From Amoebophrya sp. A120 (taxonomy: Eukaryota; Protista; Dinoflagellata), in NCBI GenBank assembly GCA_905178155.1, contig CAJINV010000003.1, forward strand, positions 11,929,426 to 11,993,425: a DNA stretch of 64,000 bases. The letters are read 5' to 3'. The position numbers were made by a program, and so were the translations under genes. The notes under the pieces are model-generated. The model was given only the letters and a program-made list of their open reading frames with translations, was not told where the DNA came from and made no database searches. Positions 27,434-64,000 of the stretch are shown here, piece by piece (positions within the stretch are counted from its first letter, which is position 1; each line of letters starts with the position of its first letter).

Positions 27434-29177
27434 AAGTGCACAAGAATTGTTCTCCCTTGTTCTCATTTCTCATGTGAGACACCAAGTTTAGGACCAGATC
27501 CAGATCTAGTTGCTCCTGTTTTCTTACGACCCTTTTCTTGCCGCTAGTATGCATGACAAATTCCAGAAGCCGTCGAAACTGTGCTACTTCGTGGCACAGG
27601 AAAAACTTGTCATGCACGGTCTCCATGATAGCGGGGGTGAGTTTGTACTGCAATTGAGGAGGAGGGGAAGTTTTGCACGGTCATAAATTCCAAAGGGGCG
27701 CTACAATTGAGGTGACGCGAGTCCTCGGCGGAGCATTTTAGTTATTCCGGATTTGAAGTACTGAGACTAACTTGCTCTTCGTTTTCCTCCGGCCACCGAG
27801 GAAGGATTTTGGGTTCTCAGGATCTTTTGACCAGGTGACCACGTAAGTAGTGCAACTGGGCGCTTGTTACCTACACATAATACATTCCGCACCAGTGCTT
27901 TGTACCGAAGTGATCAGTACGTCTACGTTTTTACTAGCACGACGCTTGTTGTGTGGAAGCGAAATTGGTTCTTGCCGCTCATATTGAAGCGAGCGCAACG
28001 CCACCTTTTCTGCGTGCTCCTCGTCCCATGAGGTGCATGACGAGGATGCCTTCATCACTCAGTCTTCAAACGGGTTCGGTCGTACTGCTTTATTGACGAA
28101 CTACACCGCACCTACGCTTGTCTTTGATTGTCTTTTGTGCGAAAGAACGGTATCGGAATCGGTTCGTGCATCCTCTGTCGTTTTTGCCGCCACCCTCGTT
28201 CTCGTGCGAAGTGTGTGTATGAACGTCAACATACAACAGGCCACCTCGTCGGCGAACCTCGGTAGAGAGAGACGATGCTTTCGGTCGCAATAGGCAAATC
28301 CTCTCCCTAGGTAAAAATATCGTGTGTCGTTCGTTGCAAAGGTGAAACGTAGGCTCTTGCATGATCTCGGAGCAGCACAAGCCTTGCAGTCCGGGTCCAG
28401 ACAAGAACTCCACAGCCTGCTTCGTTAATAAAAGCCTGTCTTTCGGTCCTGCTTAGTCGTCTTGCTCCTGTCGGTATAGCTCGTGCTGGTCACTGATTGC
28501 TTACCGCTTCCTCTTCCTCGGTGCGTGCATTGTGGTCGATTGAATACGTAAACGCCGCCGGTTTTCTGCCCCGACGACGTGCGGCAGGAGGGTGTCCTGG
28601 TGTTTCGTGCAATCCATATCTCGTTCGGAAAAGTTGGCGTGAAATCGAAGTTGGAGTTGGACATGCTGCAAACAAATAACCTGATTCATCGCAATTTACC
28701 CCATTCTACTTCCCCAGCTGCAAGTATAAGTTCGCCTTGTGCTAGCTTTTGTGGCCCCTTGGGATATCCTCCTTCACAAAGTCATTTTTTTCGCTTTACA
28801 ACCAAGACCAACAAATTTTAATAAAATCGAGTTTCTTGTCACAATTAAGGTCGTTTGATATTTTCGCTCCTCTCATATTCAGCATTAGTATTTTAACTAT
28901 TTTTCTCTCGCCAGCTTGAGTAGTACTTTTTTCATTCGCTTTACAACAAACATTTTCACAAAATTAATTTCTTTTCATCTTTCACTACAACTTTTTTCAT
29001 TTTTTTTGTATTACAACTTGCCATCCCAGCACTTCGTTCTTTATTTTTCCCCTTTTTCTGAATTTCTCAAACGAAGAACTAAAACCAAACGACCCCAATT
29101 TTTCCAACTTTAAAACAGCGAAAACGAATTCAGTTTCATAAAAAAGGTTCACTCGTACTTCTAAAACAACAAACATC

Positions 29178-31441
29178 ATGTCACGTGGTGAGAAGCAGCG
29201 AGGCCGATCTAAACGGGCACGTCCGCGAAGACGGCTTGCCCAGGAGCAAAACACGGACAGGCTATCCTACACAAAAAATACACCCACATCAGAAAACTGA
29301 TGGATTTCTACACGCGTTTGCATAAAGAAAGATGTAAGTGCTAGCATTTCTTTCATGAGAATAAATGTAGACTTTGCTTTCCATGCGGAATCGGGATAAA
29401 TAAGCTGGCAAAAAATTGTCTTACATACTGAATAGCTGCACGGCAATAGATGATATTCCCCAAAGCTGAATTTTCTGGTCTGGGTGTGCTTTTCTTCGCG
29501 ACAAGGTTGACATTTTTCCGCTTCAGCACTTCTTGAGCCATTTTTGCAGGACGTGCAACTATCCAAGTATGCCGCACTTCGCTTGCTCGGAAGTAGATGC
29601 AACAATTGTACTAAAAATCGTCATTTTCACGACTTCCTTTTGAAATGAATTTTTCATCGCATACGTTTTACACAATACAGGCGCGCCGCCGCGGCCGGCC
29701 GTGCAGAGGAGGCGCCAAAGCGGGCGGCATCGACGAGCTGCGCCCGCATGTCGTCGTGTCCCGCGGCCGGTTCGGTGGCGAAGAGAACTTGCTCGACACT
29801 GGTCGTGCTCCAGGCCTCCCCCGCGGGCGGCCCCTTGCCCGTGGATGGAGAGAAAAAGAAGAAGGGCAAAAAGAAGAGCGCCGCAAGAAAGAAGTCCACC
29901 CCCCGGGGCTCGGCGGCGCGGCTCGGCAGGCAAGGTATGAAAATTCACAACTTGTCTCTCATCTCCGTGTCATTTGTACTCGTGTACGACCTTCCGAAAA
30001 TTACTTACGCAGGGGCTAGCATGTACAACGCAGTGTCTGCGTCACAAATTTGAAGGGGGATAGTTGTAGTACGGTTTGGACTTCCGCTCACGGTTTTGTC
30101 ATCCAAAAAGTGCCAAATAGCAAAAGGGCACTTGGTATCTATTTCTATGTCAGATGAGGGGGGGGGGAGTTGTGCATTGGCATACGGGAGCGGGATGACA
30201 TTTTGAACGGTTTCGACCTGGAGCCAGACGAGGAGGAAGTCCGCGCTCAGCACTTTCACGCCCGGGCCGTTTATGCATTGCAATATGTTTGGGTCTGGAT
30301 TTGTGATGCGAGATTTGTGTGACAGCAAGATGTGTGATGCGTGAAAGTGACTGGGTAAGATTTTTTGTCATGCTGAATGTATGTTTGCGATGATCTGGTA
30401 ACCAAAGCGTGTGCAGCGCATTGAGCCACGAAAAACAGCTCATCGCACTTTTATGCCGAAGAAGCGGCCGCCCTGCAATTTTCATGTGGGTATCTTCAGC
30501 AACACAAACTTGTTCCACGCCCAGACATAGTTGGATTCAATAACATGCGACCCCGAGCAAAACGCTCGAGCGAGGCTGTTTTGCCTGGGGACGAAGGGGG
30601 TCGGCGCTCGAGCCTACGAGAGGCAGAAGCGGGAGCGGAGTTTCTGGAAAAAAAACATGTGGTGACTGAAAAACCGATTGAATTGGTGCCCAAAAAGAAG
30701 GAGGTCCGCATACAGGACTTCCACGCCCCCGGCACGCCACCCGAAACGAACCTCCCTTCCGAGGGTGCGGAAAAATCGACCCAGCCGGAGAAGGCCGCGG
30801 AAGCGAAATCAGCGGAGGCTGGCCCGGCTGCTTTGTTCGGGGACGAAGCGGGTCGCAGTTCGAGCCTGGGAGAGGCAGAGCCGGCGGGAGCGGAGTTCCT
30901 GGAAAAAAAACCTGCGTCGACCGGTTTGTCGACCGAAAAACCGGTCGAGTTGGTGCCGGCCAAGGAGGATGTTCGGGTGCAGGACTTCCACGCCCCCGGC
31001 ACGCCACTCGAAACGAACCTCCCTTCCGAGGGTGCGGAAAAATCGACCCAGCCGGAGAAGGCCGCGGAAGCGAAATCAGCGGAGGCTGGCCCGGCTGCTT
31101 TGCCCGGGGACGAAGCGGGTCGCAGCTCGGGCCAGGGGGAGGCTGAGCCGGTGGGAGCGGAGTTCCTGGAAAAAAAACCTGCGTCGAGGTCGACCGAAAA
31201 ACCGACTGAATTGGTTGCCGAAAAGGAAGAGGTCCCCCGCACCCAGGACTTGCACGCCCCCGGCATGCGACCCGGAACAAACCCCGCGGGCGAGGGTGCG
31301 GAGAAATCGACAATGCCTCGGGAGGCCGGAGAAACGGAGACAGCGGAGGCTGGCCCGGCTGCTTTGTCTGGACACGAGGGGGCTCACAGTATGCGAGGGA
31401 GAGTTGCTAGCATAGCATGTTCACGATCACATCCGCTGTGA
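29178..31441 (+). CDS. Basic N-terminus plus ~85-aa tandem-repeat protein (exons 29178-29262, 29683-29935, 30190-30271, 30548-; may continue to about 31825)
   Basis: In-frame joins across three introners; NLS-like KKKKGKKK; Glu/Ala/Pro-rich repeats. Confidence 0.7.
29263..29677. mobile_element. Introner, perfect direct repeat CAGGC
   Basis: CAGGC|TAT...ATA|CAGGC; the TIR is weak. Confidence 0.8.
29936..30184. mobile_element. Introner
   Basis: TATGAAAATTCACAACT...CTCATCT / AGATGAGG...AGTTGTGCATTGGCATA. Confidence 0.85.
30272..30542. mobile_element. Introner
   Basis: TATGCATTGCAATATGTTTGGGTCTGGA / TCCACGCCCAGACATAGTTGGATTCAATA. Confidence 0.8.
30570..31385 (+). repeat. Coding tandem repeat, period about 250-267 nt, about 3 copies
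   Basis: CAGGACTT(C/G)CACGCCCCCGGC recurs at about 30713, 30980 and 31244; GCGGAGGCTGGCCCGGCTGCTTTG occurs three times. Confidence 0.95.
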
Positions 31442-32159
31442 AGCGGCAGCGCAATTTAATCTTTCGGTTTTTCTTTTTGGCACACTCATAATTATCTGCA
31501 ATTCCGCTTTGCAACTTCACGCTCACCGCTGTTTGTTTTTTTGCATGGACTTCTGTTTTTCGTTTTGGCGCAAATGTGGCGAAAACGTGCGGAGAGTAGC
31601 TGCGTGGATGCTATGCTAATAATTTTCGGTGTGACTCCGTGCTCAAGCTTGGGAGAGGCAGAGCAGCTACCCCATTACAAACCGCCCTTGGCTTGGTCAC
31701 GATTGTCATCTACTTTGGATATCTCTCGGGCGATCATTCTCGGACTGAGCGTGAGGTTATTTGTTATTACATCACGGCGTACTAGCCGACTCTGTTTTGG
31801 CTGCAACGTGAATCTTCACTCATGATTTCGATCCAAACGAGCACAAAAAGCAAAGACATATCGAATTAGTGACGAGTCAAAGGCGGCTTTGATTGCGATA
31901 CAGCATTGGAACGGAATTTTTGTTATCTCCCGAAGCTGCAGCAAAGGCGTCCCCTTTTCAGAAAAAGTGAAATTTTGCACTGCGTGGCTCTTGAAGATGT
32001 TAATTGAGGTATATTAAACAAAGAGTGGCTCGCTAGCCGAACGCCGTCGTATTGCGATTGTGATAGTAAAAGTATTTCTCTTTCTGGAGTGGGGACTTCT
32101 ACTTTTTCTACTGTGATGCGTGCAATCTTATCAATTGCCTGCGCGGTTGCAGCACGATA

Positions 32160-35100
32160 TCAGCGCGCAAACACTTCTACCCAGACCGGAAATCGCATTT
32201 GTGCGACGGTACTGTACAACTCGCGGAAGAAGTGGATGTTGAAGAATAAGCATTTACATTTACTTAGATACGTGTCATTGTATGTAGTGAGGTCACCGAA
32301 CGGTTCTAACCAGGGAGTTTTTTTGACACCCAGCCAGCAAAACGACCGTCAGTTTTCAAGCGGGCGGGAGTGTTTTTTGACGAAAAAGATTTTCAGTTAT
32401 CAAGCGGCCGGGGCTTTGCCGTCAAACAAGCCCGGTCGAAAACTATCGATTCGCACTTGATAAAACGACGCCGGGGAGCCGGCAAAAGGGGCGCCCTTCT
32501 GAGGCGCCCGCCGCCTTGATTTCTGGCGATTTGGGGCGCCCAAAAAGGGGCGCGCAGAAAACGCGCCCAAAATCAGAACAGCGAAACAGCATGGCACGGC
32601 CGCGATTTGGGAGTATTTTGGGCGGCCGCGAAAGCGGCCGCCTTTTCGCCGGTTTGGGAGCCTGGGAAGCTTTGCAAAAAGCGCCGGCGTGAAAAATAAA
32701 AACGCGAAAAATAAAAAGCGCGCCAGACGCGCAAAGCCAATCCGCATGCTATGGGGCCGGTTTTTCTTCGCTTTGTGGGCGCCCCCCGTGGCACCCAGAT
32801 CGGCCCCATAGCATCGGGGCTGGCTTTCGAAAAGGAATTTTGGAAATGTGCCAAAATTTGCGACGTTTCCCAAGTGGCCGCCCTACCGTGCGGCATAACG
32901 TTACTCACGGTGGTATGCCGAGCCCATAAAAAGCAAAGCCGCGGCCAAGGCGGCGGTCGGCAAAAAAACACCCACGACCTCACTACCCCCGCCCCGGCGG
33001 CTATATTTGGTATTTTGTTTTTGAGGGAATTGCCCGAGCGGGGGTAGCTATGTATAGCGGGACAGGAGTGCACGCACTTGTATTTACCGCGTTTGTTCGT
33101 CATGCACTTCGCTTCCACTTGAGGACCCCAACGCACACTGGCAGGAAACAAACCGGGATTTGAGTAAATTGCATGTCATCGGGGACGAGATCATAAGTCT
33201 GCCGTCCTCACTCTCGTTGCTTGTAGCAATGGTCCCCATAATGTCCTCTTATTCTACGATGTCGCTTTGACACTCTTGAGCGTTTTTTGTCCGCGACCCC
33301 CAGAGACGTGGGGAGACAAACCCACTGCAGCATGCATGTGCTGTGTTTGTCTTCTGGTCTGCTTTTTTCGTTGATAAATATCATTTTTCTTTTGTTGCGC
33401 TGCTGCGCAAGTAAAAGTATGGCGAAGACCCGTAAAAAAAAGTTCCATGTGGCCATCCGCTTCGTTTGCGAAGGCACAGTGTACCGTATGCGTGCTTGTA
33501 TGGGTAGAATTTTTGAATTTCGATTCTAGGTCAGATACTCGGGCCGCTTTCAGTTGAGGAAGTTCAAGCATTGCGGGCTAATGGACAGGTGCAGGTGGCG
33601 TCTCCGCATGATGATATCACAGCGCAAGCACTTCTACCCAGACGACCAGAAACCGCATCAGTGCAACGGCACTGTACAACTCGCGGAAGTGGATGAAGAT
33701 TAAACATGGAAGTGGACACGATGAATCCACCCCTTGCATTGACCGCGTTGTTTCGTTATGCACTTGAGGGCGCCAAGGCCAACGCACGCTAATAGGACAC
33801 TGATCGGGATTTGAGTAATTTGGATGTCATTGAGGACAAGATCATGAGTCTGCGCGTTTTAAGTACTGTGGCTCTCGCCATATTAGCCCTCGTGTGCGCA
33901 TAGACTTACTCTACGACATAGCTTTGACCCGTTTGAGCATCCGCTGACCGCGACTTCTAGATAAGTAGTCAGAGAAACTACAGTACACTGTGTGTACCTT
34001 ATGGTCTGCTTGTTTCGTCTTGCTGCGCAAGGGCAAGTATGACGTCTTGCCAAGTATGACAAGTGCTCTGTTGTATCATCTGTGTCGCCTGCTAAGGTGC
34101 AGCGTGCCGTCTGCGTCCTTGCATGGGTAGAGTTGTTGACTTTTGATTGCAGCCGTGGTCAGGACCAAGTCTCTGCCGAATCTACCAGGAGGATTGCCCC
34201 AACAACAAAATCATTTTGCTGGTTATGGACATATCACCGCGAAGACACCTCTACCTAGGCCAGAAATCGCATGAGTGCGCCTAATCTACACAACCAGCGA
34301 AAAGTCAAAATGTTGATGAAGATATAACATTAAGCATTTATTGTGTCCGTATTGAGACAGTACTCACTGTGGATGTGGATTGTGGAACAACGGGAAAAAA
34401 TTGGGCGAGCAGGGAAGATTATGTAAGGTACGACCGGAAGAAACGTTTTTTCATGAGTTTTCATAGTGCGCTCCCGCTTCGTGACGTCATGCTGCAGATC
34501 ATGATTATGCTCAGTATGATGTCCTGGTTTCGAGTATATTTGTATGTAGTGAGATCACCGAGCTGCTCTAGCCGGGCAGTTTTTTTTTGCAATGAAGGCC
34601 ATTTACATGAAAAAACCCGAGCGGTCTAGCCTGTTTGACTTTGCTTTCAGGGAGGTCCATTGCTAAGGGAGGTCCATTGCTCACCGCCCAAAAAAAACGA
34701 CGATCGCGAGCGGGCATCAAAAGTGGCACGACGATCGCGAGCGGGCATCAAAAGTGGTGCCCGCCGCCTTCGGTTCTGCAACTTTGTGGCGCCCAAAAAA
34801 TCAACGCGCGCAAAACCGAGTGACGACAGACACCCCGCGGCATAGCCCCGATCTCGGGGCATCTATTGTAGGCAGGCGCGAAAGCTGCCGCCCTTTCGCC
34901 GGATGCGAATTCTGAGCCGGGGAGCCGGTGCACGAAGTGCGCTCGTGAAAAATCAAATCGGAAAACAAGAGGAAAAGCGCGTCGTATTCATGATGCAAGA
35001 CCGCCTGCTTTAGCCCGCTCTTACTTTTCCCGCGTTTTGGGCGCATCCCGCGGCGCCCGGACCCGTCTCTTAGCATCGGGCCTAGCTTTCTACGAGGAGT

Positions 35101-35290
35101 TTCTATAAGTAGCCAAAATTTGCGGTGTTTCTTCATGCATTAACGTCCTGCGTGCGGCGGGCCTAGCGTTCTGCGTTGTGTCATGGCGCGCCAGCCAAGG
35201 GCAAAATCGCGGTCAATGCGCGGCCAAGGTGGAGGCAAGAAAACGGCAGCGGCCCCAGGAGCTCCGCCTCCGGTGGCTATTTTTGGTATG
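32160..35290. repeat. Decayed tandem/segmental repeat family (copies start near 32160, 33620 and 34230)
   Basis: Shared anchors: CACTTCTACCCAGAC...AAATCGCAT three times; TGTATGTAGTGAG(G/A)TCACCGA at about 32279 and 34541; CGGGATTTGAGTAA...ATGTCAT at about 33154 and 33805. Confidence 0.8.
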
Positions 35291-39599: not shown

Positions 39600-40275
39600 C
39601 TTTCGGATTCGGACGAAGACAAAAAATCAACCGCGCCGGCCTGCTTGGCTTGCCGGGAAGGAGTCGCTCGCGGTGAGGAGGCTATCGCCCACCAACGTAC
39701 AAAACGGCGAACGATAGCGGGCCACCCAAGGCGGCCCCCTTCTGAGGCGCTGTCCGCGCCCGGTGCTTGCGATTTGCGGCGCCCGATAGAGCGCCCAAAA
39801 AAAGAACGCAGAAAAAGTCGGAACAGCCAAGCCGCCTGGCGCGGCTGCGGTTTTGGAGCTTTTGGGCGATCGCGCAAGCAGACGCCTCGCCAGCTTCTGT
39901 TGCTGGGAAGCTCTTGAAAAAGCGCCGCCTCGAAAAATGAAAACACAAAGAAGAAAAGGCGCCCCAGACTCATGAAGCCAGCCCACATGCCTTCGGCCCG
40001 GTTTCCTTTCGCCTTTTGGGCGCCCCCCCGCGGCGCCCGGGCCGCCCCCCTGGCGCCGGGGCTTTCTTCCGACTTGGAATGCCGGAAGCCTGCCAAAATG
40101 TGAGACGGCTTCCAATTGGCCGCCATTCCGTGTTGTGCCTCTGGTTGTAACGGCATGGCCGACGGGGCGGCGGGCCCGTAGCAAGGCCAGGAGCAAGCAA
40201 GGCCGCGGCCAGGGCGGCGGCAGGCAAGCGGCAGCGGTGCCATTATCGCTGCCCCGGCGGCTAAGCTATTTTTGG
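39600..40275. repeat. Further decayed copy of the GC-rich 32400-33010 / 34760-35290 segment
   Basis: Shared CCCTTCTGAGGCGC, GCGCCCAAAAA, GGGAAGCT and GCCCCGGCGGCTA...TTTTGG. Confidence 0.65.
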
Positions 40276-46601: not shown

Positions 46602-49600
46602 ATGCCTCGCCCGACGGACAACGACAACTCAGGGGAAGCCCGTATGCAGGTCTCAAGTGGGAAGAGTTGCGCTTTCAAGATGAAAATGGTAATTGAAACG
46701 AAAATGAAAAATGTACATATGTACATTTTTCATTTTATGTACATTTTTCATTTTCGTTTCAATTACCATTTTCATCTACTGAACCTATGCAACTATCTAT
46801 TGAAGAAGAAAATGATCAGAGCAAGCTAACCGGGTGATCGTCATGGATACAGTTTTTGTGTCACCTTTTCGTTAAAAGCGAGCGAGAACTTTGATTGAAG
46901 ACCCATTTTGAAAAAGCTCGCAATTCTCAACTTGAGACCTGCATACTCGCCCGATCGAGAAAAACCGTGGTGCCGAAAATATGCCACGAAGAAAATGAGT
47001 CAACAAAATAAAAGCTTGCTCGCGAATTTGGTTTTATCTTTTTGTGCATCTGAGGACTATTTCTATCGCGTTCGCGATATGTTCGATTCTCATTCTGAGA
47101 TGCTTCTTGCGCTGTCGTTTGAGTGCAAAAAAGTGCATGATTCCTGTGGACTGGGTTTCGCGACCACGACGAGGACCACAAAGTATGCAGTTTTTAGACC
47201 GATGGGAGAAGTAGAGAAACGATGATAAAATATGTAGTCACGACTGCACCGTGAAAAGCAGCTATTGCAGCTTCATGCACCATTGTAGACTCAAAGTTCT
47301 GTGGTGATACAGGCGATTTGGGCTGAAATACGATCCCCCACAGGTCGTTCTGGAGTACCTGGACCCTGTATCACAGGAATAATGGTTAAGAGAAGCGCGA
47401 TCACCACAGTTTCAGGTGCATCACAGGTGTTGAAATATGCATCGCTTCCTTTCGTATGTGGATGGAAGTTTTTTGAACAAAGTTGAGGGCCAATGATATT
47501 CTCTCTTGGTGATCGTGCTTTTGAATGCCTTTCGACAGGATAGCGGAGCAGCGGAAAACTATTTCACCGCGTCATGGGACTCAGCAAGCTAAAGCCAGGT
47601 AAAAATCTGTCGCATTGCAGAAGACACCAGAAGAATTGTTGCATCCATTCGAAGTAGAAGAAGGCCACGACTCGGCCATGATCGCGGTGCGCATGCACAC
47701 GATACTGCAGAATTTAGATAAATCTCTTGCAGATTCTTATTTTTTTCTCGCGACGGTTGTTTGAAAGTAGAATATGACTTAATCGATTTCAAAAACTACA
47801 GATACCGACCCGGTAAAAGTCGCTTTGAAGCTGAAAGAGAAAAACGAAGAGTACCTCAGCGACGACAAGGTGGCAATAGAACAGCTGGTACTATGTTTTT
47901 CTCTTCCACACTGAATGTTAAAAAGTAACTTCTTCAAAGTTACCGTTCTGCTTCCGCAAGCGTCTATTTCCGTTTGTATATATACGGAATCTACAGAGTA
48001 GGACCGTTATGCCGTGTGCTTTTCGTGCTGTAGCACGAGCAGCAGCTGTGCAGTGTCAAAAACGTCGCTCATACGAAGATCAATACGACCCAATCTAAAC
48101 ATTCGTAAAAACGCGCTTCAGGTGTCGCTGATAACCAAGTTGCAGGCGAAGCGCAAGCAGCAGCAGCAGCCGCACGCCGCAACCGAGGACGCCACAACAG
48201 CGGAGTCCACGTTAAACCTAGGACGGACAAGGAGCGAAAGCAGTTATCTGTCGCAAGTGATGTATCTTCAGAGTCAGATGGTGATGAAATTTTCGTTCGT
48301 CCACCACCTGGTGAGGTGTTGTGGTTTTCTTGGACGGAGGTTGAAACTTGCATTTGAAAGTGTTTATTTGCCACTCCGCAGGGGCTAGTAGTTTAGCGCT
48401 TTGCAACAGGGTCTTGCAGATGCAACCGCGGTCACTGCTTACTCGTACACCCATGTACTATCGATATGCAGTACCAGAAATTCAATCCCTGCTGACTCTG
48501 ACGTGTTTGCAGTGCATACCAGTTCAGTAATGCCGATTTCTGAGGACCCCGCGATCGTGCCGCCTCTGACTATGCAATTATGAAAAAGCTGTGATATTTT
48601 TACAGGACGATGCAATAGATAAGTCGGTCGCAGCAGAATATGCAACACACATTTGGCGGTTTCGGTGTGTGTAGCAGAGCCGGGCTATTCTTGTGTAATT
48701 TTTTCTTGCGTGAACAACGTGAAGCTTGTTCTAAATACCGCTTCACTCACGACCACTTCTGGGTGGGCAACAAGTAAGACGACTTTTTTTCGTTTCTTGC
48801 ATGCTCCTGCTGCTTGTGCTCGACCTCGAGAACTTCATCCGTCACTAGAATATACGTATTAAAGTGCGTCCACGTTATTTATAGCACACACTTTTTCTCT
48901 TCCATACTGACCTCCAGTAATTTGAAAGCGCTGAACGACAAGTCCAAGGAGCGCACCATATCGAAAGGAAAAATCCCCCTTCCCCATATCGAAAAGGAAA
49001 TCTGTGATGCTGGATTTGCGTACACAAATCAGATTTGTCTTGCAGTAGAGGACTGCACGCAGTTCGCCAGCCGAGATAGGGGCCTCTTGGTGTAGGCGCC
49101 TAGCATGGTAGACGGCTGTCGTGTAGTCCTTACAGCATTACAAATCGCCTGCATAGTGTGGCAGAGAGCCTGGGCGTGTCTTCTCGCAAGACAGACAGAA
49201 TTTGTGGCCACAAATCTGCGTCACAAATATGCAGAAGATACGTTGTCAATATGGGGAGGGGGGATTTTTCCTTGCAATACACCAAGGAGTTTCTGAACGA
49301 CCTGCCACCACTCGAGCAGCTAGACCACGCGCACCTCTCGAGCAGTTCGTTCGACCGCGACAACCGGGACGCGCAGCGCACGACAGGCGCCGGTACAACT
49401 AGCAACCGACAAATCTCGGGGGGGCAGCTGCGGGGAACCTCCAACGCGGTCCCAAGTGGATCATCTGCGCCGAGACCAAACGCCGGCGGCACCGCGCGGT
49501 CGCCCGAGCACCAGCAGCGCGCGGTTTCCTCGGCGAAGCAGCAGAGTATGTCTCGAGAAAAATTCTCCTCCTAGCGAAGCATACAGTAAAGTATAAATCC

Positions 49601-53661: not shown

Positions 53662-55317
53662 TGTTCACTTGTCATGGTAAAAAGCGATTTTTAAAGGTTG
53701 ATGCGAACAAGAGCGCGGTGTTGCATAAACCGCTCAGCATGACTTTGATGTCGTTCTTCGCAGCTTAGCACTGAAGAACACTCGTCAACATCAAGACGAA
53801 TTTTCAGCACCACAGCTTTCCAGAGCCGGACCACCTTATTGCAGTGCATACCTGCGTCATGCGGAAGCGAACAAGAAAGTATGGGGGGACGCTATTCCAG
53901 ATTTCAACCTTACGGTAGTTCCTAAAATCCTTATATCAGAATATTATTTTTGTCATGCAAAATATTTTTCTTCTTTTTCGGTGAAGAAATGGCGGCTTCA
54001 AACCCAGTGGCTGCTGAGCTTCGGTGCGGGTTTTTGATAGTGTGTGCATGGGCAGAGCACAATAACTCTTGCCATCGAATGTTCGTTTTCGGTGAGTCGA
54101 AGATTATCCCGGCGGTGGGTCACTACCTCCTATCGGTCGACGAACATAAATACCGGTTGCGGTGTCGGGGAAAAATGAATATGGGATGGCGGCTTTGTTG
54201 TGAGTCGGGGAGGTGGTGAAAGAGGTGAAGGAAAAACCAGATGGAGCTGCAGTTTATGACTAGTAAGAATACAAATACAATAACAATACACAAACTCAAA
54301 CTCCACACGAAGCACTATACACAGAGGCTGCAGTCGCAGCTGCAACACGCAGGCGAGCAGCAATCCGTGACAAGCTGTTTCTTTGAACCTGAGAACCAAC
54401 GTTGAGCCTGAGAGCCAACGACAGACAGAAGAGATTCGGAAAAGCAAAAGCACTTGTCGGCGCGAATGTACCTCGTTTCGAGGATAGTTGTAGGAGCGCA
54501 AGCGCGAAACAGTGCGCGGCTGCTATGATTTGTTGTGGAGCTTTTTGTTCCCCGGTGTAGGCCGTTCCCGTTTTTTTGAATGTCAGTTTCGTCGCAGGGA
54601 TAGCGATAGCCATAGCGGAGGTTGAGAGCGTTTTTTTTTTCTGGCGATGATGAGCGGGCTTTGAGATGGCGAGAGAAATGAGATGATTTTTTTTTTTTGA
54701 TTCCAGCACCCCGGGAGTAGTGTTAGCTCATTACTGAAAGCCGGTCTTTTTGTTTTTTCAATGATGTTTGTGATTTTCCACTTCCCTTGGGAATATCTAT
54801 ATCAACTATGCGAAAGCGCTTTTCAGAATTCAGATTCAGAATTAGAAATAGAATTAGCAATACAAATAGACAGAGAATTATTAGAAATAAACACAGAAAC
54901 AGAAGCAGGCACGTAAGCAAGTATTGTTACTGGTATTAGTAGCAGTATTTCGCATCTTCCTTTTCTTAGTGGTAGAGTGTTACTTTTCTTCTTCTTCTAT
55001 CTCGTGTTATTGACATACGGAGCGTCTGGATCTCATTCACACCCTAAAGCTAAAAACTAAATGGCTATGGCATGAAACAAAGACAAACTCCGACCGAACA
55101 CGCGCGAACGAGTTCGGTAAATGCAGCAAAGAACTGCATCGAACTCTGATGCTGCGTCATCATCTTTTTTCGCTTTTTCTTTTTCATTTTCATAAATTAG
55201 CTGGTGAGGAGAGCTTCGTGCGTCGGTTCCCACTTGGACTTGCACTTGCTCTTGCACTTGCTGTCGCCTACCGAGGTACGTACGCTTTGAGCGCGACACC
55301 AGCAATCCCGTCCGCGA

Positions 55318-56304
55318 ATGCCGACTCCGCGATTCATCTTCCCGGAACTTGCTGAACCCGAGCCGGAACCGGAGCCCTTGAACCCAAAGCGGACAATCAG
55401 CGCGGAAGCGGTCACCAATCGAGCACGGGTTCTTGCCTCCGCAGCGGTTCCCGATACCTGGATTCCGTTTCCCTCGGCGGATACCATCAACAGTTGGATT
55501 GAGGAACGCGTTTTTGAGTGTCAGCGTTCATCTGCCGTTCCGGAAAGTTGGCACACTTGGATTAATAATCGCTTCCGGGAGGTCGGCGGAAACCACACCC
55601 TGCCGGCGTTGGACCTTCTCGAGCGAGAGCGTCGTGACAGCAGGAACGAAGACCATCTGCGCTTGCTGATACGGAACTTCTCACCAGGAGCTGGAGGTGC
55701 GCCAGGGGCTGGAGGTGCGTCGACTGGAGGCACAGAACTTCCCAGGGGCTCGGAGAATTCGGAGCTGGAGTTTCAGCGGCGTACCTGGCAGAGCAGGAAC
55801 CCAAAAATCAGCTTTGAAACTTGGCTCCGATTGAAGAAGAAAGTAGAATCGCGGAGCTCCTCTTCTTCGTCGAGTTCCTCTTCTTCGTCGAGCTCGAGTT
55901 CCTCTTCGTCGAGCTCGAGTTCCTCTTCGTCGTCGAGTTCCTCTTCGTCGTCGAGTTCCTCTTCGTCGTCGAGTTCCTCTTCGTCGTCGAGTTCCTCTTC
56001 GTCGTCGAGTTCCTCGTCCTCCTCTTCGTCTTCTGGCGTTGGGCGCGGTTTCGGCGCCGGATCTGTGTCGACAACTACATCCACGTCAGTATTGGGGCCG
56101 ATTAGTTCTTCCACTTCCACTTCCAGTACCACTTCAACTTCCACCAACGCAAATTATATTCCGTTTGGACCGCTACTAGACCCAAACTGCCTCGACGAAA
56201 GCGAATCCGACGAGGACGACGACGAGGGCGATAGCGATAGCAGTTTTAGCCTGCCCCCTCTCGAGACGAACTCCGGGTGGTGTGATCTCGAGGAAATAGA
56301 CTAA
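55318..56304 (+). CDS. Hypothetical 328-aa protein with a ~60-residue poly-Ser tract and an acidic tail
   Basis: Open ORF with GC3-rich flanks, just upstream of the transposase gene. Confidence 0.6.
   Translation: MPTPRFIFPELAEPEPEPEPLNPKRTISAEAVTNRARVLASAAVPDTWIPFPSADTINSWIEERVFECQRSSAVPESWHTWINNRFREVGGNHTLPALDLLERERRDSRNEDHLRLLIRNFSPGAGGAPGAGGASTGGTELPRGSENSELEFQRRTWQSRNPKISFETWLRLKKKVESRSSSSSSSSSSSSSSSSSSSSSSSSSSSSSSSSSSSSSSSSSSSSSSSSSSSSSSSSSSSSGVGRGFGAGSVSTTTSTSVLGPISSSTSTSSTTSTSTNANYIPFGPLLDPNCLDESESDEDDDEGDSDSSFSLPPLETNSGWCDLEEID
55855..56034. repeat. Minisatellite, unit GAGTTCCTCTTCGTCGTC (18 nt), encoding poly-Ser
   Basis: Directly visible tandem copies. Confidence 0.95.
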
Positions 56305-56762
56305 CGACACACGGGTTTACAGAAGAGGAGGGGAGTCGGTATTCTGCTCTGTTCCTTCACGTTCACCTATTTGAAAACGAAATTGCGTTTGACTTCTTTG
56401 AGTTTGATCTTGTGTGTATTTCGAAACGCATTTGATTGCAGTTCCAGTTCCAGTTGAAAATGCAAACCAGTGTAGATTTGTGGAAAGACGAAAATGTGTG
56501 TATGGTGCTGCTGCTGCTGCTGCTGCTGCTGTGGCAGTGGCTGCGCGCGTGCCTGTGGAAGAGGAAGTGGAACTGCAGCTGGAGCTGTTGCTGGAATTGG
56601 ATGTAGATCTGGTTCCGGACGTGGATGTGGTTGCGGAGTTACGAATTGAAAAAAAAATGACAATCAGGTGGTCCTGGCCGCCGGGGGCCAGTAGCTGCAG
56701 CTCCGTCCTTTTTCAGTGGTTCCGCTTTCACTTCTTCTACCTCCTCTTCCATAGCCGTGCCC

Positions 56763-59700
56763 ATGCCGCCCAAAAAGGAGCTTCCGCATGGATACGACTC
56801 CATGCTGCTGGAGGAGAAATGCCGGCTCGTCAAGTCGATGAACGATATCTGCCGGCTCTTGCAGTGGGCACGCTCCTCGAACCGAGACGAGCAGGACAAT
56901 CTGGGGCACAAGTCCGTAACGCCGAGCGTGCAGTCACTGTCTAAGCAGTTCCTCAAGTGGTGCGAGTCGGAAGAAGATAGTGGAGGAAAAAAAGTGGCGA
57001 AGGAAAGGCAGTACGAGTTTTACGCCCGCTTCTGCTATGAGGCGCGCTTCAAGTTGAATCCGCGCGAGAGCCAGGTCTTTCAGGACGGGAAAAACAACAC
57101 AAGCAGCGCCAGCAGTTCCACAGTAAAAAAGGATGGCGAGGAGTTTGATCTCGGGATACCGGAGGAGATCCGGAAAGATCCGAAAATGATGAAGTTGTAT
57201 GGGCGCTGGTTGTGTGCGCAGTTTCGCGGAACCGGGGCGGAAAGAGGGAAAATAGTCAAAGCATCGATGGGAATGGTCGACGAAATCAAACAAACAAGAC
57301 GCTGCTTCAAAAATAGCGTGCAAGCGTTAGCAAACCACGACTACCGCGGACCCGGGAGTTTGTTGACAACACGGAAACGCGCTGCCACCGCCGATTGTCT
57401 TGACAGCGGTTTGCTGCTGGATAGCCGGAGCCAGATAATCCCGAAGGAACTAAAAAAGACCAGGACTCACTCTTCTCCGCGGGCGCGGCCACAGCCACAA
57501 GCTGAAGCACAACTGCATGATGCAAAAGCAAATGCGCTTCCAATCAATTTCAATATCAATGAAGACCAAGACGAAGCATTGTTTCCAGATCTAAAACAAC
57601 GCCAGCAGCAACAACAACTACAAAATCAAAAGCAAAAACGGCAGCGACAAGACTCCATCTCTCGCGATGTTGTTCCTGCTGCCAGTGCGGCTGCGGGACC
57701 AGGAGTGGGCGGAGGTGCAAACGCATCCTCGAGTTCGGGCAGTTTCTTGCTGTACGACGATGAGCAGTTTCGTGCTGTCGGTGGGCAGGTAGAAGAGGAA
57801 GTACTAGAAGGGGACGACTTTTTTGAGGAAGACGAGTGGAACTACACCTCGGGCACGGGCGAGCATAAGAAGACCACCTCCACCACCCGCGCGCGCCCGC
57901 GTGCAAACACAGCCCCCGAAACCGGCAGTCTCCGACGAATGGGCGCAGACGCACGCGCCGAAGACAAAGTTGAAATCTCCGACGACTGGGTGCAGAAAGC
58001 GTATCACGATTTGAGCGAGCAAGTCGATTTAGCCATGACGGTAGATGAGGACGACTTCGAGTTGGATCACGAGGAAGGTGAGGGCAACCAGACCAGCTAC
58101 AGGGATCAAGTCTTGGAAGACGAGGCGATGGCGTACAAACCGGACCTCCACCCGAGTCTGTTCAGCACATCTATTGTTGTTGCTGCACCGGTATGTAATG
58201 CAAAAGCTAAAGCAGAACCAGAAGCATCGCATTTGCACTAGATCTAGAACTAGTACTAGTTCTAGTAATTATAGTATAAATTGCATGACAAATAATTAGA
58301 GCTGATCTACGTTTACGTGTGCGTCTACGTTTAAATTCTAAAAGTAAATGAAAAACCAAAATTCGCAATCGCATTCGCGATTGCTTTTAGTTTTGCATTT
58401 ACTATGAGTGCGATGCTTTTACTTTTGCACAGGATAAGCGGACGTCTCAGCTGAGGAAGCCCGAGCCGCCCAAAAAATGGCGGATAAGCAGGTCCAGAGG
58501 GAGAACGACCGCATGAAGAAGTGGGTGAAGAGGTCGGAGCTGATATCCTAAGCAAAAATGCCCTCGCTCCATAGCCAGCAACGCTGGCAGCGTTGCAGCT
58601 ATCGGGTGGGGATGTCTTTGCTCAGCATAGCTAACGTACAGGGACTGCTTGCGGTGGGTGATGAGAATGCGGTTTCTGAATTTTGTCAGCGCGACGGCGT
58701 TCCAAATCATCAACCGTTCGAAAGCGCAACAGCAGAATAGCAAAAAGCCAGCAAGCTCCGCCCCGCAGGCGAACAGGGATGCAGGTCTGGACCAAGATGA
58801 AACGCACACCGGGCCGGTGTACCGAGCGGCCGGTATTCGGGACGAGTTATCCGGTGCTCCGGACGGCATTGATGTGGAGTTCAAAGGCGTGTACACCGAA
58901 AACTACACCTACGATTCCGCCAAGAACGTTTTCCACCCGGTGAGCCAAGACAACAAAACCAACTCGGAAAGGGAATACAACTACCCCGCGGAGCCGGGCA
59001 AGGGCGATTCCCGCGACAAGGGGCAGCAACCTGGCAGAAAGCCACGAGTGGTATTCCGAATTACATCGGACGCAACTCCGATGGGAGACTGTAAAGTATT
59101 AAACAGTAAGTGTTCGATGTACCGGTCGGTTGGGACGGGGCGGCATGTTGTCTTCGAGCAGTTCGCACTTGAGTCCATCACCACCGCCGGCAGCTTCGAC
59201 AACATTACGAGAGTGCACAGCCTCCTCCACCTCCGCCTCGCCCATTTGAGTTCCCATTTGTTTTTATGGCAAGCAGCGGATGCTGCTTGCCATAAGAAAA
59301 AGACTTGGGTTTGCATTTAGGTTGAGACGTAGCAAGAAACAGTATGCGTTTTTGTTTTTGTAATGGAAATGGAAATCCTATTCATACTCATACAGGCCTA
59401 TGCCTGTAGCTGGAGGCATAGCTATTTCTAATCCTAAATTAGGCATAGCTATTCCTATTCCTTATCCTATTTCCGAGGCTAGTACTAATTTGCATTGTAG
59501 TGGGCGGGGGGGGGGGGACGGGGGTTGTGCATTCGCATAACAATTTTGGACGACTTGTTCGAACAAGCGTGGCGTGCAGGGATCCCGCTGCCAACGGCGA
59601 GTAAATGCTGTGGAATGCCGGGTTTTATGCCCGAATTCCGCCCGGCATTGATTGGAGTCGCGGATTGCGGAAGCGAGATGGTGAAAGCGCTGCGGGTATC

Positions 59701-62700
59701 TTTTGGAAAACGTGTTTTGCAGCACGCCCGAGACCGATCCTCCCGAAAAGCATTTTTGTCTCAACTTGCAAAACATCCCTCGTAGATAGTGCCTGCGAGA
59801 AGTGTTTTGCAAGGTCGGCCACACAATAAAAAAAGCGGCTTTTGGGTTCGGGCGTGCTACAGGGAATTTTTTTCCAATTCATACACGAGGCTCGTGCTAC
59901 TTGCCGAGGCGTGGCGCATCAAAATGCCCACAGACCTCCAATGGAGTGACGCATACGTATTTTGCCAATTGCATCATATTATCCATTGAAAAAGATAGAG
60001 ACCCAGAGCCAGACCCTCAGGCTCAGGCTCACCCTGTGCCTGTGCAGGGTCTGACTCTGTGTCTCTGAATCGCACTAGCACTCGCTGTCGCGCTCGTAGT
60101 AATTGCAATTCTGCTTGTGCAAGGGGAAGGGGTAGTGGATAGGATGGGATTGGGGTTGGGGAAGAGTAAGAGCTGCTCTTCCTTTTGCGCAGATGTGCAA
60201 GGGGAAAGCTGCTCTAGTACTTGCAGTAGTAGTGCTTGTTGTTGTTCAACAACAAGTGATTTGTTTTATTTGTATTCCCACTACCACCATGCGCCGCGTG
60301 GTGGTAGTACTAGTACTAGTAGCTAGGAGAAGCGCGAGTAGTAGTGCTAGTGCGATGCTTTTGCAGTCCATACACTTGAATAATGCCGGCAAAAGTGCAG
60401 TGCTCTGCATGTCGGCGTGTTTCGGCGAAAAACTCGACAAGACGGTCACAGCGGTCTCCAAGACCATTAACCTCTGGTTGGCCGAAAAATACAACACGGT
60501 TGTGCCCCGCCTTGGGGAGGAGGAGCGGAAGCTCCTCCAGCCGATAGGCGACATCTCGAAACAATTCGAGTTTCACAACCAATTGGCGGACGCCCAAGGT
60601 GTCCTCCGGGCGGTTGACCCCAAGCATGTGCTCCATGGCCACGCCGAGGAGGAGTACAGCAGATTGGCAGACATCGCAATCCGCGACGGGTGGGGGCCTG
60701 CTGAAAAAAAGCAGAGGAAGGTGACGCACTACGTCAGGAGCCGGTGGCTTTCGATCAACAACACCATCAAGGACATCATCCAACAGGCGGACAAGTATGC
60801 ACTGCAACAGTATCGCGCGACCTAGAGCGCATGGTCATTCTCCTATGCTTGCATATGCATTTGCGTTTAGATTTAGATTTTGATTTACTCGCGCAAATGC
60901 ATGGGCATGAGCTTCGCCTCTGTCTTTAGCATTCGAGAACGAGCACGCGTGGGCGTGCGATATTTTTGCACAGGATAGCAAAATTATCGTCACAATTCCG
61001 TTGCTGTACAAGAAGAACAACCTACAGGCGTGCAACAAGGCCCTGCTGTCCAGGGCATACAATGCGGATACCGATCCCAACTATGAAAAGGAAAACGAAA
61101 AGTAGTGCTGCGACAATCCCGCTGGCCGCTGCCCTCTTTCCCACCCCCACCCAATCCCGAACCCAATGCAAAGGCAAAACCAGAAACAAAATCTGACCCT
61201 GAACATGTACCCGTTGCGACTGCAACCACGCGCAGCCACAGTGGCTGTGCGTGGTCACAGTCACGCCAACTTCTCTTTTTGCATTTGGTAGGGTTAAGCT
61301 TGCCGCAGCGCAGGTTTTCGATTTCATAAGAGGTGGTGGTCCTGTATTTCGGCGCTGGACTCGGTTCTGGACTTTGTGACGGAGGCTAGCCGCCGGACAA
61401 TGCGACAGGCAGCTCTTTCTGCGAGTGGCTGCGACACGTACGAGCTGGCGCGGGCCGCCATGGTGCCGTTCACCGACGAGCAGTTTATCCGGCAGCTGGA
61501 GTTGAGTAGTTCGAAGTTCGACTTCGACGGGGACTCCTTCGGCCGGTGTATCTGCGGATACGGCCGGCTGATGAAAGAATTACGAGGCAGGCAAAGGGCC
61601 ATGGAGGAGTACCCGTACGCCCTATTCGGGCTTTGCACGGCGGGAAGAGTCCGAGCAACAGCACAGCGGTTACTTGAGCTGGGCCGGCGGAAAGAGTTGG
61701 ACCGGATCACGTTGGACCTATACGAGGACTTCTACTTCGAGCTGAGCGAGCTGGCAAACAACGCCGATCTCCCGGACGGTCCGGAACCCGACGCGCTTCC
61801 TTCCCTGTCCGAAAACCTGATGGCGGACCTCTGCCCCTTGTTGCATGCTTTGAGCTTAACAAGTCAAGAAGCAGAAGGCCTGAACTCCGAGACGACATCG
61901 GTGAAGCGCGAGGTGAACACGTTGATCGGGTCGGTCATGTCTTCGGCAAGGTATCTTTTTGAGTTTTGTTTTCTTCTATGTAGTAGGGATTCTCATTCTT
62001 TCACGGCCCATGGCCATGACCAAATCGAATAAGCACTACTACTACAGCATGTCCATGTCCATGTGGTGCTGGTGCAGTTCCAGTCCCACTCCCATCGTCA
62101 GTTCCAACCCCGCTATGTCTCTGTGATGCGCGGGGCACTAAGGGTTAGGATGTCCCGTTTTAAAAGTCTTGACTTTGCAACTAAGTTGAGTGAGTCTCGC
62201 CGTCGCCGTCGCCATCTACATCTTGAACTTGGAATTAAATTGAATCAGGTTTTTCATCCGGGCAAACCTGCGGCTCTCCTGGGAACAGTATTTTTTTGCG
62301 TACCAGCGGGTCAGTGCTAACTACGCCACACGGTACGGCAAACACAGGAAGTTCATGCCCGAGGTCGGGCTGGTCCTTTTCAGTGACAACTGCCACGTGG
62401 TGATGGACAAGGACGTGGCGCCCAGAATGTACACCCCGCCGCAGCCGATTACGGGAGCAAAGTCCACTCGGCTTCACTCCTTCGCGGTAGATACAGAAGT
62501 TTTTCGACTACGGCCGGGCGTTTTGCTGGCATTCGAGGTCGACGAGAGGGAGGACTGCCAGTTCCTGGTGCTCGACGTCACCGCGAATGACGCGCTGGTG
62601 TGTGCTGTTGATTGCAACTCCGAGGGGGATTACTTCGTCGACCTCAACAAAACTTCTCTCTTTTCCGAGGTGGTTTTCAAGAAGAACTGCTGGTACGACC

Positions 62701-63871
62701 ACAAGGCCCATAGAAACATCCAGCGCCGGGGCTGTTTACCAGACGCGCCGCGGGCTGGTAAGGAAAACCACAACAGCATCGGAGCCGGACTTGCGGCGGC
62801 GCGGGTAGTGGCCGACAGGGAACAACCGAGCGAACGGGAGAAGTTTGAAGCGCTTCTTGAGGGGTCTCATCAAATGCCGCCACTGCGCATACCAGGGAAA
62901 GGCACGGTTCCGAAGCTTACCGGTCCGAAAGCGAAGGCGAAGGCGAGCCGGGAAAAGGAGAAGACCGAGTTGCAATTGGTACAGATAGGCATAAGTATTG
63001 TTTTAGTCTTCCCTATTTTCAAGATCAAGCTCAGCTTCATGGTAGTCCCACTCCCAGTCCCATTCTACCACAACCATATCCATCGCGTCATCTCAGTTGC
63101 ATTTACATACTATTTGCAACTGCCTTTCCTTGGATGAAAAAGTAAAAGAAAAAGATAAAATAAACTTTTCAGGTGCACGAGCAGCGACATCCGAGCAATA
63201 GCAGCTCTTCATCTTCTTCGTCGTCTAGCTCAAGCTCCTCTTCTTCGTCATCCTCGAGATCTAGCGCGGGCCCATCCTCCGCGAATCTGGGTGGCAAGGC
63301 AAGTTTGTTCAACGCCGGATCGAGCAGTGCGGCGGCCTCTTTTCTGCGTAAGAACACAAGCAAAACGAAAACAGCAGTCAGCAAGGCCTCCTCCTCTTCT
63401 CGCGCTGCGTCTGGATTCGGAGGAACTGCGACTTTCGGGGGAGTGTTGGTGCAGAAGAAAAACAGCAAGCAGAAACCGAAAGCAAAGGCCGCCGGCAAGA
63501 AGGAGTTGGTGTTGAACGACGAGACACAGGGTCAGGAACTAGCAGCTCCTGCGAGCGGAAAGAAACAGAAAGAAAAATCGAACGAGGGGATTGTTAACGA
63601 TTCTGGTGCAACAGCAACTGATCAAGACTATTGCCACGTGTGGATGAAAGTGTGCGACTTCAAGTTGTTTTATTGGGACCGGGAATCGAGGCAGCTCCGG
63701 TACAACGAATCCGAGAAGTGGAAGGAGCTCTTCAAGCTCCGCGCCGAGGCCGGGAAGTCTAACAAGGAGGATTCCCGCAAATTCCGGTATCGGATGCAAT
63801 TTGGGCAGTCCTCGGAGTACAGCTTGAAATCCGTCATGAAACAAAGAAGGCTACGCACTGCAAAACTGTGA
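56763..63871 (+). CDS. hAT-like DDE transposase, 10 exons (56763-58191, 58442-58543, 58635-59205, 59545-59696, 59889-59979, 60378-60795, 60983-61081, 61334-61950, 62249-62978, 63173-63871), about 1635 aa
   Basis: The spliced frame is open (4908 nt). hAT motifs appear in canonical order: FRITSDATP (D1, about 59069), GVADCGSEMVKA (D2, about 59663), FCQLHHLNN (CxxH, about 59963), VRSRWLS (RW, about 60742), WW.CISALDSVL, LSLTSQEAEGLNS (E, about 61874). Confidence 0.82.
58192..58436. mobile_element. Introner in the transposase gene
   Basis: TATGTAATGCAAAAGCTAAAGCA / TGCTTTTACTTTTGCACAGGATA; direct repeat ACCGG/AGCGG. Confidence 0.85.
58544..58629. mobile_element. Minimal 86-bp fold-back introner in the transposase gene
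   Basis: TATCCTAAGCAAAAATGCCCTCGCTCCATAGCCAGCAACGCT pairs with AGCGTTGCAGCTATCGGGTGGGGATGTCTTTGCTCAGCATA; direct repeat GCTGA/GCTAA. Confidence 0.9.
59206..59539. mobile_element. Introner in the transposase gene
   Basis: TACGAGAGTGCACAGCC / GGTTGTGCATTCGCATA; direct repeat AACAT/ACAAT; joins DNI|LDDLF. Confidence 0.8.
59697..59883. mobile_element. Introner in the transposase gene
   Basis: TATCTTTTGGAAAA / TTTTCCAATTCATA; frame restored. Confidence 0.8.
59980..60372. mobile_element. Introner in the transposase gene, just after the CxxH motif
   Basis: TATCCATTGAAAAAG / CTTTTGCAGTCCATA; direct repeat CATAT/CACTT; joins CQLHH|LNN. Confidence 0.8.
60796..60977. mobile_element. Introner in the transposase gene
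   Basis: TATGCACTGCAACAGTATCGCGCG / CGTGCGATATTTTTGCACAGGATA; direct repeat ACAAG/GCAAA. Confidence 0.85.
61082..61328. mobile_element. Introner in the transposase gene
   Basis: TATGAAAAGGAAAAC...GCTGCGACAA / TTGCCGCAGC...GTTTTCGATTTCATA; the direct repeat is not conserved but the frame is restored. Confidence 0.8.
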
Positions 63872-63944
63872 CTATCTGCTTCTGCAACAGCATCAGCTTC
63901 AACACGAGCTCGAGCACGGGGAAACGCACAGTCGAAGCGACAAA

Positions 63945-64000
63945 GTGCCTGCGCGTGCGCGCCTGCGCGTGCGCGCGCCCGCACGTGCGCGCGCCCGCAC
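63945..64000. repeat. GC-alternating simple repeat running off the window end
   Basis: GCCTGCGCGTGCGC and GTGCGCGCGCCCGCAC tandem units. Confidence 0.8.

Follow-up and report, generated by a model that had tools for sequence, protein, structure and literature searches.

Does a gene of the dinoflagellate Amoebophrya sp. A120 that is cut into short exons by introners encode the very enzyme that moves them? The question arises at positions 56763 to 63871 of a 64,000-nucleotide (nt) stretch of contig CAJINV010000003.1 (assembly GCA_905178155.1, positions 11,929,426 to 11,993,425, forward strand), which is referred to here as the window. A first-pass annotation, made from the letters of the window, described an intact hAT-like transposase split by seven TAT...ATA introners and proposed it as their mobilizer. 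The explanation favored here, at slightly better than an even chance, is different: a long predicted gene that would descend from a hAT-type DDE (Asp, Asp, Glu) transposase, would now be a single domesticated host copy, and would later have been colonized by seven or eight introners.

The gene model and its inverted-repeat elements

Disconnected open reading frames (ORFs) had been said to join here into one stop-free frame, and they do. When seven terminal inverted repeat (TIR) elements, each with 5 nt, and two GT-AG introns are removed in silico, the predicted gene runs from an ATG at 56763 through ten exons and comprises 4908 nt, or 1635 codons, with one stop. The frame used is the sole open frame in eight of the ten exons. 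By arithmetic, the chance that a fixed rule leads into an open frame at each of the seven TIR junctions is ~0.003, or 0.008 with three offset classes. Offsets of +3, +4, +6, and +7 in place of +5 lead to 28-34 stops, and the frame is kept at all six cut positions tried within the repeat. GC content at third codon positions is 0.68 for the whole gene and 0.72 for the core, versus 0.43 at second positions, and resembles that of neighboring genes of the window. The frame is open over ten exons while the repeats of the elements have decayed, which suggests that coding has been maintained.

All ten exons lie on the forward strand. Exon 1 (56763..58191, residues 1-476) encodes a partly acidic, low-complexity N-terminal region with no CxxC, no BED finger, and no Pfam match below E 1. 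Exon 2 (58442..58543, residues 477-510) has a single open frame of three. The predicted first catalytic Asp, D656, falls in exon 3 (58635..59205, residues 511-700), and the second, D741, in exon 4 (59545..59696, residues 701-751). Exon 5 (59889..59979, residues 752-781) contains C777xxH780, whose conserved block spans the E5 junction, and exon 6 (60378..60795, residues 782-921) contains W905 in the RW motif of the putative insertion domain. Exon 7 (60983..61081, residues 922-954) is open in all three frames; its phase is set by exon 8. Exon 8 (61334..61950, residues 955-1159) encodes a helical region; its EGLNS motif, which deviates from the norm, supplies E1135 as the predicted catalytic Glu. 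The first GT-AG intron (61951..62248, 298 nt, +) is followed by exon 9 (62249..62978, residues 1160-1403), which would hold the end of the hAT C-terminal helix and then a beta-rich domain without a fold match. After the second GT-AG intron (62979..63172, 194 nt, +), exon 10 (63173..63851, from residue 1404) encodes poly-Ser, a basic linker, and the first part of another domain, and it is likely not the last exon.

The elements between exons 1 and 8 are E1 (58192..58436, 245 nt, TAT...ATA, flanks ACCGG/AGCGG), E2 (58544..58629, 86 nt, flanks GCTGA/GCTAA), E3 (59206..59539, 334 nt, flanks AACAT/ACAAT), E4 (59697..59883, 187 nt), E5 (59980..60372, 393 nt, flanks CATAT/CACTT), E6 (60796..60977, 182 nt, flanks ACAAG/GCAAA), and E7 (61082..61328, 247 nt). 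Their description as seven TAT...ATA elements is largely borne out. Within the first 16 nt, the two TIRs of an element pair at 11-13 positions, and all 14 gene-internal ends are in the top 0.6% of positions when scored with a matrix from six elements elsewhere in the window that have a perfect target-site duplication (TSD). A matrix of 26 ends in the window gives the end motif TAT, seven variable bases, AAA; the left end of E3 departs from it in reading TAC. In RNA, the TIR arms of E1-E7 are predicted to pair with a mean pair probability of 0.32-0.77, versus 0.00 for both GT-AG introns. In a DNA run, five other contigs share the right end of E5 and depart exactly after 60372, and three share that of E6 and depart exactly after 60977; what is present elsewhere in the case of E2, E5, and E6 is ends, not whole elements. 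A reading of E1 as a GT-AG intron was rejected on inspection of the sequence, as it runs into a stop in exon 2.

The 5-nt flanks of E1-E7 match at 4, 4, 3, 1, 3, 3, and 1 of 5 positions, with zero perfect TSDs. Among pairs of ends selected blind to the repeat, 6/25 outside the gene have perfect 5-bp repeats versus 0/7 inside, where five of the seven match at 3-4 of 5. The proposal that the gene's elements are older than other introners was rejected, these numbers being too few. The six elements outside the gene that appear young, at 16028-16279, 16331-16592, 22097-22418, 23190-23481, 27429-27685, and 48959-49279, have TIRs that match at 11/16 positions or more and are flanked by a perfect duplication whose length is exactly 5 bp; the mean over 30 shuffles was 0.1 such elements. 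The first two are close relatives with 30-nt TIRs, 82-94% alike, and lie 51 nt apart downstream of WD40-coding ORFs.

A probable eighth TIR element begins at 63852 (63852..64000, +). Its left end reads TAC, like that of E6, scores at a level reached by only 22 of ~128,000 positions, and lies 17 nt upstream of the TGA at 63869-63871. The right end of this element is beyond the window. Because the TGA sits inside this probable element, the gene likely continues past 64000 with its C-terminus beyond the window, and the word intact in the first-pass annotation is unsupported. On the other side of the gene, an unpaired look-alike of a left end (56640..56655, +, score 11.0) lies 123 nt before the ATG. 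It is a weak candidate for an outer TIR or for a decayed element in the 5' untranslated region (UTR), because unpaired ends are common in the window. An imperfect inverted repeat, TGT...ATA, at 56554-56753 (16/22 match) runs up to a pyrimidine-rich AG located 8 nt upstream of the ATG; it could represent an element of the 5' UTR or the gene's splice acceptor.

Evidence for hAT descent and departures from it

The residues D, D, CxxH, RW, and E had been named in hAT order by the first-pass annotation, ahead of any block test, and they are found at D656, D741, C777xxH780, W905, and E1135 (motif starts at residues 654, 739, 777, 903, and 1130). The reference for comparison is an intact, eukaryote-type hAT transposase (locus L014, 526-3198, minus strand). 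Its contig, 3.2 kb long, belongs to a metagenome bin of Hydrogenophaga, where it is probably contamination. The transposase matches PF05699 at E 2.8e-14 and retrieved 150 relatives (P0001-P0150). A profile was made from the 135 relatives of at least 450 amino acids, with 15 shorter proteins excluded, and samples one hAT subfamily. An alignment of 29 members matches Hermes at E 2.9e-70, placing the reference set in the Hermes family. In the search for reference hATs, viral scans yielded none, one of 32 genome loci held one, and two of 401 genomes matched PF05699.

Searched with hmmsearch, the spliced protein scores 2.9 bits (P=0.002 for a single comparison), and 4/2000 core shuffles reach the hidden Markov model (HMM) score. 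Two stretches are in register and cross junctions E4-E7: D741 to CxxH (739-811), and RW with the following helices (890-974), the latter including exon 7. A block test moved eight ungapped blocks of the family over 1629 amino acids; their windows and spacing limits were chosen with the HMM output already in view, and controls were run at the same settings as the real protein. Four of the eight blocks rank first: D741 (1 of 1615, 14.1 bits), C777xxH780 (1 of 1614, the sole CxxH in the protein), W905 (1 of 1604), and the 49-column C-terminal block with E1135 (1 of 1580, though with a negative score of -11.2 bits). The collinear chain with the highest score, 10.2, passes through D656, D741, C777, W905, and E1135. 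None of 900 shuffles reaches this value, their averages being -28 to -29, and the reversed protein stays at -31. Among the other controls, the top scores are -23.2 for 43 unrelated bacterial ORFs and -11.3 for 100 concatenates of window ORFs.

An Atlas search with exon 6 led to a FAM200/GTF2IRD2-like cluster (0.84) and a DUF4371 cluster (0.81), both below the 0.9 bar; these are the only Pfam families named among the best 5 of 30 matches. DUF4371 is a hAT domain. GTF2IRD2 is listed as hAT-derived (PMC3257199). The profile and block results thus support the hAT call of the first-pass annotation, and the protein is very probably hAT-derived but very remote.

A number of observations qualify or weigh against the view that an expressed gene of hAT ancestry is preserved here. 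The offset of +5 is not fixed by the frame alone. Removal of each element with 5 nt does give an open frame, but offsets of -1, +2, +8, and +11 are open too, and the 5-nt repeats match at only 1-4 of 5 positions; the hAT block score favors +5 only slightly (10.2 at +5, 9.1 at +8, 3.7 at +2, 2.6 at +11, and -0.6 at -1). Transcript support was not found, as three raw RNA runs under the same species label placed 0 reads on 9.5 kb, a result that is no test of expression. The 3' end and any outer TIR fall outside the window. At 2.9-3.9 bits, the hAT signal is weak in itself, and the chain score of 10 compares with 216-366 for 22 held-out hATs. On its own, the D656 block ranks only 17 of 1616 and was picked by the collinear chain, and the three remaining blocks rank 10, 19, and 41. 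The bare D/D/CxxH/RW/E order occurs in 404/5000 local shuffles (8%) and is weak evidence alone. The hhalign probability is 0.5-0.6%, which is not significant, with the N-terminal half out of register, and pairwise alignment to one hAT is not significant either (z below 1). A Pfam scan of the ten single exons and two read-throughs returned no hAT family, and word-based searches with exon 6 (among longer lengths) and exon 8 (among longer and near lengths) found neither a homologue nor an orthologue at E<=1. The ERxFS motif is replaced by EGLNS: T-5, S-4, E, and S+4 are kept, and R+1 and F+3 are lost, positions at which the family has R in 129/135 and F in 123/135 members. Residues E+13, E+14, and E+16 are V, N, and L here and not basic.

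Further searches were also negative. No Dimer_Tnp_hAT match was obtained in Pfam with exon 8 or exon 9, each scanned separately; metagenome scans with exons 8 and 6 gave no homologue; a sequence search of the PDB had no match below E 0.86; and the Atlas search with exon 8 gave no usable match. Single-sequence models of single exons are of low confidence, with exon 8 all-helical at a predicted local distance difference test (pLDDT) score of 36.7 and part of exon 9 at 38.7, and Foldseek with these low-pLDDT models returned none at E<=0.001. A BED zinc finger was not found, there being zero CxxC anywhere in the 1635 amino acids. A hand-made strict motif pattern was dropped, as it missed the real protein.

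The basic residues at the E+13, E+14, and E+16 positions contact the TIR in Hermes, and their joint mutation inactivates Kat1 (PMC4763223). Because R+1, F+3, and this basic patch are lost, catalytic activity is uncertain, and the odds that the predicted protein is catalytically active at present are about even.

Resident gene or introner mobilizer

Three contigs of 2.1, 3.5, and 4.5 kb from one DNA run, which may be the window's own source, cover most of 54.5-64 kb at a depth of 37-42 with few differences. Depth rises to 68-146 solely in bins that hold element ends. Depth is not a copy count, and at the 90% likeness used older paralogues are missed; within that range, the coverage suggests that there is no near-identical second copy of the gene. 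In 54500-64000, the window differs from the contigs at 15 positions, every one of them an A in the window, which suggests substituted or ambiguous bases there. Six of them alter a residue of the gene, with none catalytic and none a stop.

No outer TIR pair was found in the window, nor a right TIR in 63871-64000, the window ending 129 nt after the TGA. At more than 7.1 kb, the gene exceeds hAT elements, which are typically under 4 kb (PMC3517528). Domestication of hAT genes goes with a gain of introns in the coding sequence (PMC3257199, Table 1), and a domesticated copy can retain nuclease activity, e.g., Kat1 (PMC4763223). The published mean intron density of the Amoebophrya genome is 1.42 per kb. 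At that density, 6.9 introns are expected and 9-10 are present (P 0.16-0.26); for non-canonical introns, 7-8 compare with 4.2-4.6 expected (P 0.06-0.18). The intron load is near that of any gene of this genome type. A feedback loop, in which expression of the gene depends on splicing out its own substrates, had been suggested; because the intron load is near that of any such gene, the loop would apply to most genes and is not special to this one.

In the favored explanation, an old hAT-type transposase would have become a resident host gene, gaining host-like flanking domains, and introners would then have invaded it at the background rate. The host's general non-canonical splicing would cut out each TIR hairpin together with one 5-nt repeat, and the gene would be expressed only by way of such splicing. 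The core may fold as a ribonuclease H domain with a helical insertion and may act as a Kat1-like, hairpin-forming endonuclease on host sites, to which the long non-hAT N- and C-terminal parts would target it in place of a BED finger. The introners in the gene would be passengers, likely moved by another, integrase-type enzyme.

The mobilizer proposal makes the gene the source of the transposase, in trans or as an autonomous element, for TAT...ATA introners with 5-bp TSDs. The missing A120-type introner transposase would then represent a hAT lineage both new and remote, using TAT...ATA ends with a stagger of 5 bp, and would be encoded by a resident gene acting in trans, which is an unlikely but still appreciable possibility. 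The DDE triad is kept, an unpaired left end lies at 56640, and the perfect-TSD elements elsewhere in the window, so rare in shuffles, indicate that a TIR transposase acted recently. Core exons of 91-617 nt could evade the published RPS-BLAST search, and the deviant E motif could accompany non-standard ends. By that search, Farhat et al. 2021 detected no transposase in the A120 assembly and argued against transposase-mediated spread of introners, while the A120 inverted-repeat motif, TAT-N7-AAA, equals that of the window (PMC7789003). Families of hAT5 make 5-bp TSDs, but hAT5 is placed in the animal Blackjack lineage (PMC12730594). Against a hAT enzyme stand the A120 families themselves (Gozashti et al. 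2025, PMC12130899): family 38 is described with '5-bp TSD, TA/TA Termini' and ORFs with Copia/Gypsy homology and is classed as Ginger; hAT is the final class in none of 33 of the 58 A120 family rows; and fam3, the largest A120 family, has integrase-domain matches, perhaps nested insertions. TA...TA ends, as in GingerRoot, and 5-bp TSDs, as in long terminal repeat elements, are integrase-type features (PMC6839031). A Pfam scan of 74 of the 107 window ORFs of at least 115 amino acids found only a WD40 gene and no integrase. An element whose own ends recur inside it in 7-8 pairs would probably not transpose as a whole, and the intron load is not enriched. With neither an outer TIR pair nor a second copy found and with ends that are integrase-like, the mobilizer link is unsupported.

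The other candidate explanations differ in what they make of the protein. An inactive transposase-derived scaffold, or a neighboring CxxH-type DDE lineage outside hAT proper, would account for the low chain score against a profile of one subfamily and for the loss of ERxFS and of the basic patch. The T-S-x-x-x-E-x-x-N-S motif may also resemble Mutator/FAR1-type motifs. All three acidic residues, CxxH, and RW are retained, and the C-to-E spacing of 358 amino acids is set against 328 in the reference hAT; the scaffold or outside lineage is unlikely. A hAT-like element, autonomous or recently immobilized, that has ends of its own and no relation to the introners would agree with the kept triad, with the upstream ORF (55318-56304) that ends in its own stop, and with a downstream flank beyond the window that leaves room for outer TIRs. 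Single-copy coverage, a length with 9-10 introns far from the hAT norm (PMC3517528), the missing BED finger, and repeats decayed in all seven elements, implying long residence, make it rather improbable. The least probable explanation is that the frame belongs to a genuine gene of some other kind, or to a relic, and shows hAT motifs by chance. It would explain the zero database matches for any exon, and the motif order recurring in shuffles and the block settings chosen after the HMM output leave it some room, but the chain score was reached by none of the shuffles, window-ORF concatenates, or bacterial ORFs, the residues had been named beforehand, and exon 6 gives its Atlas lead, although a lead only.

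Under the favored explanation of a domesticated, passenger-laden gene, the locus would still count as a distant variant of hAT whose catalytic Glu motif is altered. A DDE-retaining, hAT-like gene hidden by introners shows that a transposase search can miss one. Because an introner-split gene can escape such a search, the published no-transposase argument needs redoing on spliced proteins. The gene is also a concrete enzyme to set against introner ends, beside the published integrase-like candidate. If it were the missing transposase, it would have been overlooked because its own substrates cut the gene into short exons, and its non-canonical splicing would be required before further introner spread. 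No hAT gene in Amoebophrya was reported in the literature searched, a coverage that leaves out most subscription papers, including Roy et al. 2023.

Other features of the window and known systems

Directly upstream of the gene, the ORF at 55318-56304 (+, ~328 amino acids) has a run of ~60 Ser and an acidic tail; it gave no family above the cut-off and no exact match in the protein collection. A diverged repeat family with three partial copies occurs at 32150-35130 and 39728-40132, with 66-85% identity over 50-410 nt. The ORFs scanned in it have no Pfam match, and it is possibly a decayed larger element. An AT-rich, perfect 42-nt inverted repeat with a 16-nt spacer is found at 46678-46777. Repeats are also found at 30574-31390 and 10092-10472, namely a coding tandem repeat, ~267 nt long and present three times, and a direct repeat of 154 nt at 92%.

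The hAT superfamily, represented by Hermes (PDB 8edg/4d1q) and an Ac-type set, has the same D-D-CxxH-RW-E order and a gapless C-terminal block after E. The motif spacing is 85/36/128/230 amino acids here versus about 75/19/64/264 in the reference hAT of L014. Unlike members of the superfamily, the predicted protein has no BED finger, EGLNS for ERxFS, no LDPR, and no basic patch at E+13 to +16. It also differs in ~650 amino acids of extra N-terminal and >450 amino acids of extra C-terminal sequence and in its 9-10 introns.

Domesticated hAT genes, such as Kat1, GTF2IRD2, ZNF862, and PRKRIR, are alike in being single copy, with coding-region introns and extra domains; Kat1 keeps DDE, CxxH, and W. 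Unlike in these genes, the introns here are TIR introners, the host is a protist, and the searches gave no orthologue of the gene. The hAT5 group shares its 5-bp TSD with the window introners, and the gene is hAT-like, but hAT5 lies among animal Blackjack-type hATs.

The A120-type introners of Farhat et al. 2021 (PMC7789003) have the same inverted-repeat motif, hairpin-forming ends like those predicted for E1-E7, and a similar size; their short direct repeats would correspond to the imperfect 5-nt flanks seen here. E1-E7 would be ordinary members of this type, with no element-level difference. Ginger-like A120 family 38 resembles the window introners in its TA...TA ends and 5-bp TSD; it is ~810 bp in 5 copies, and a complete transposase is not shown in the source (PMC12130899). 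GingerRoot has TA...TA ends like those of the window introners (PMC6839031). Family 38 and GingerRoot suggest an integrase-related enzyme, unlike the hAT-like protein predicted here.

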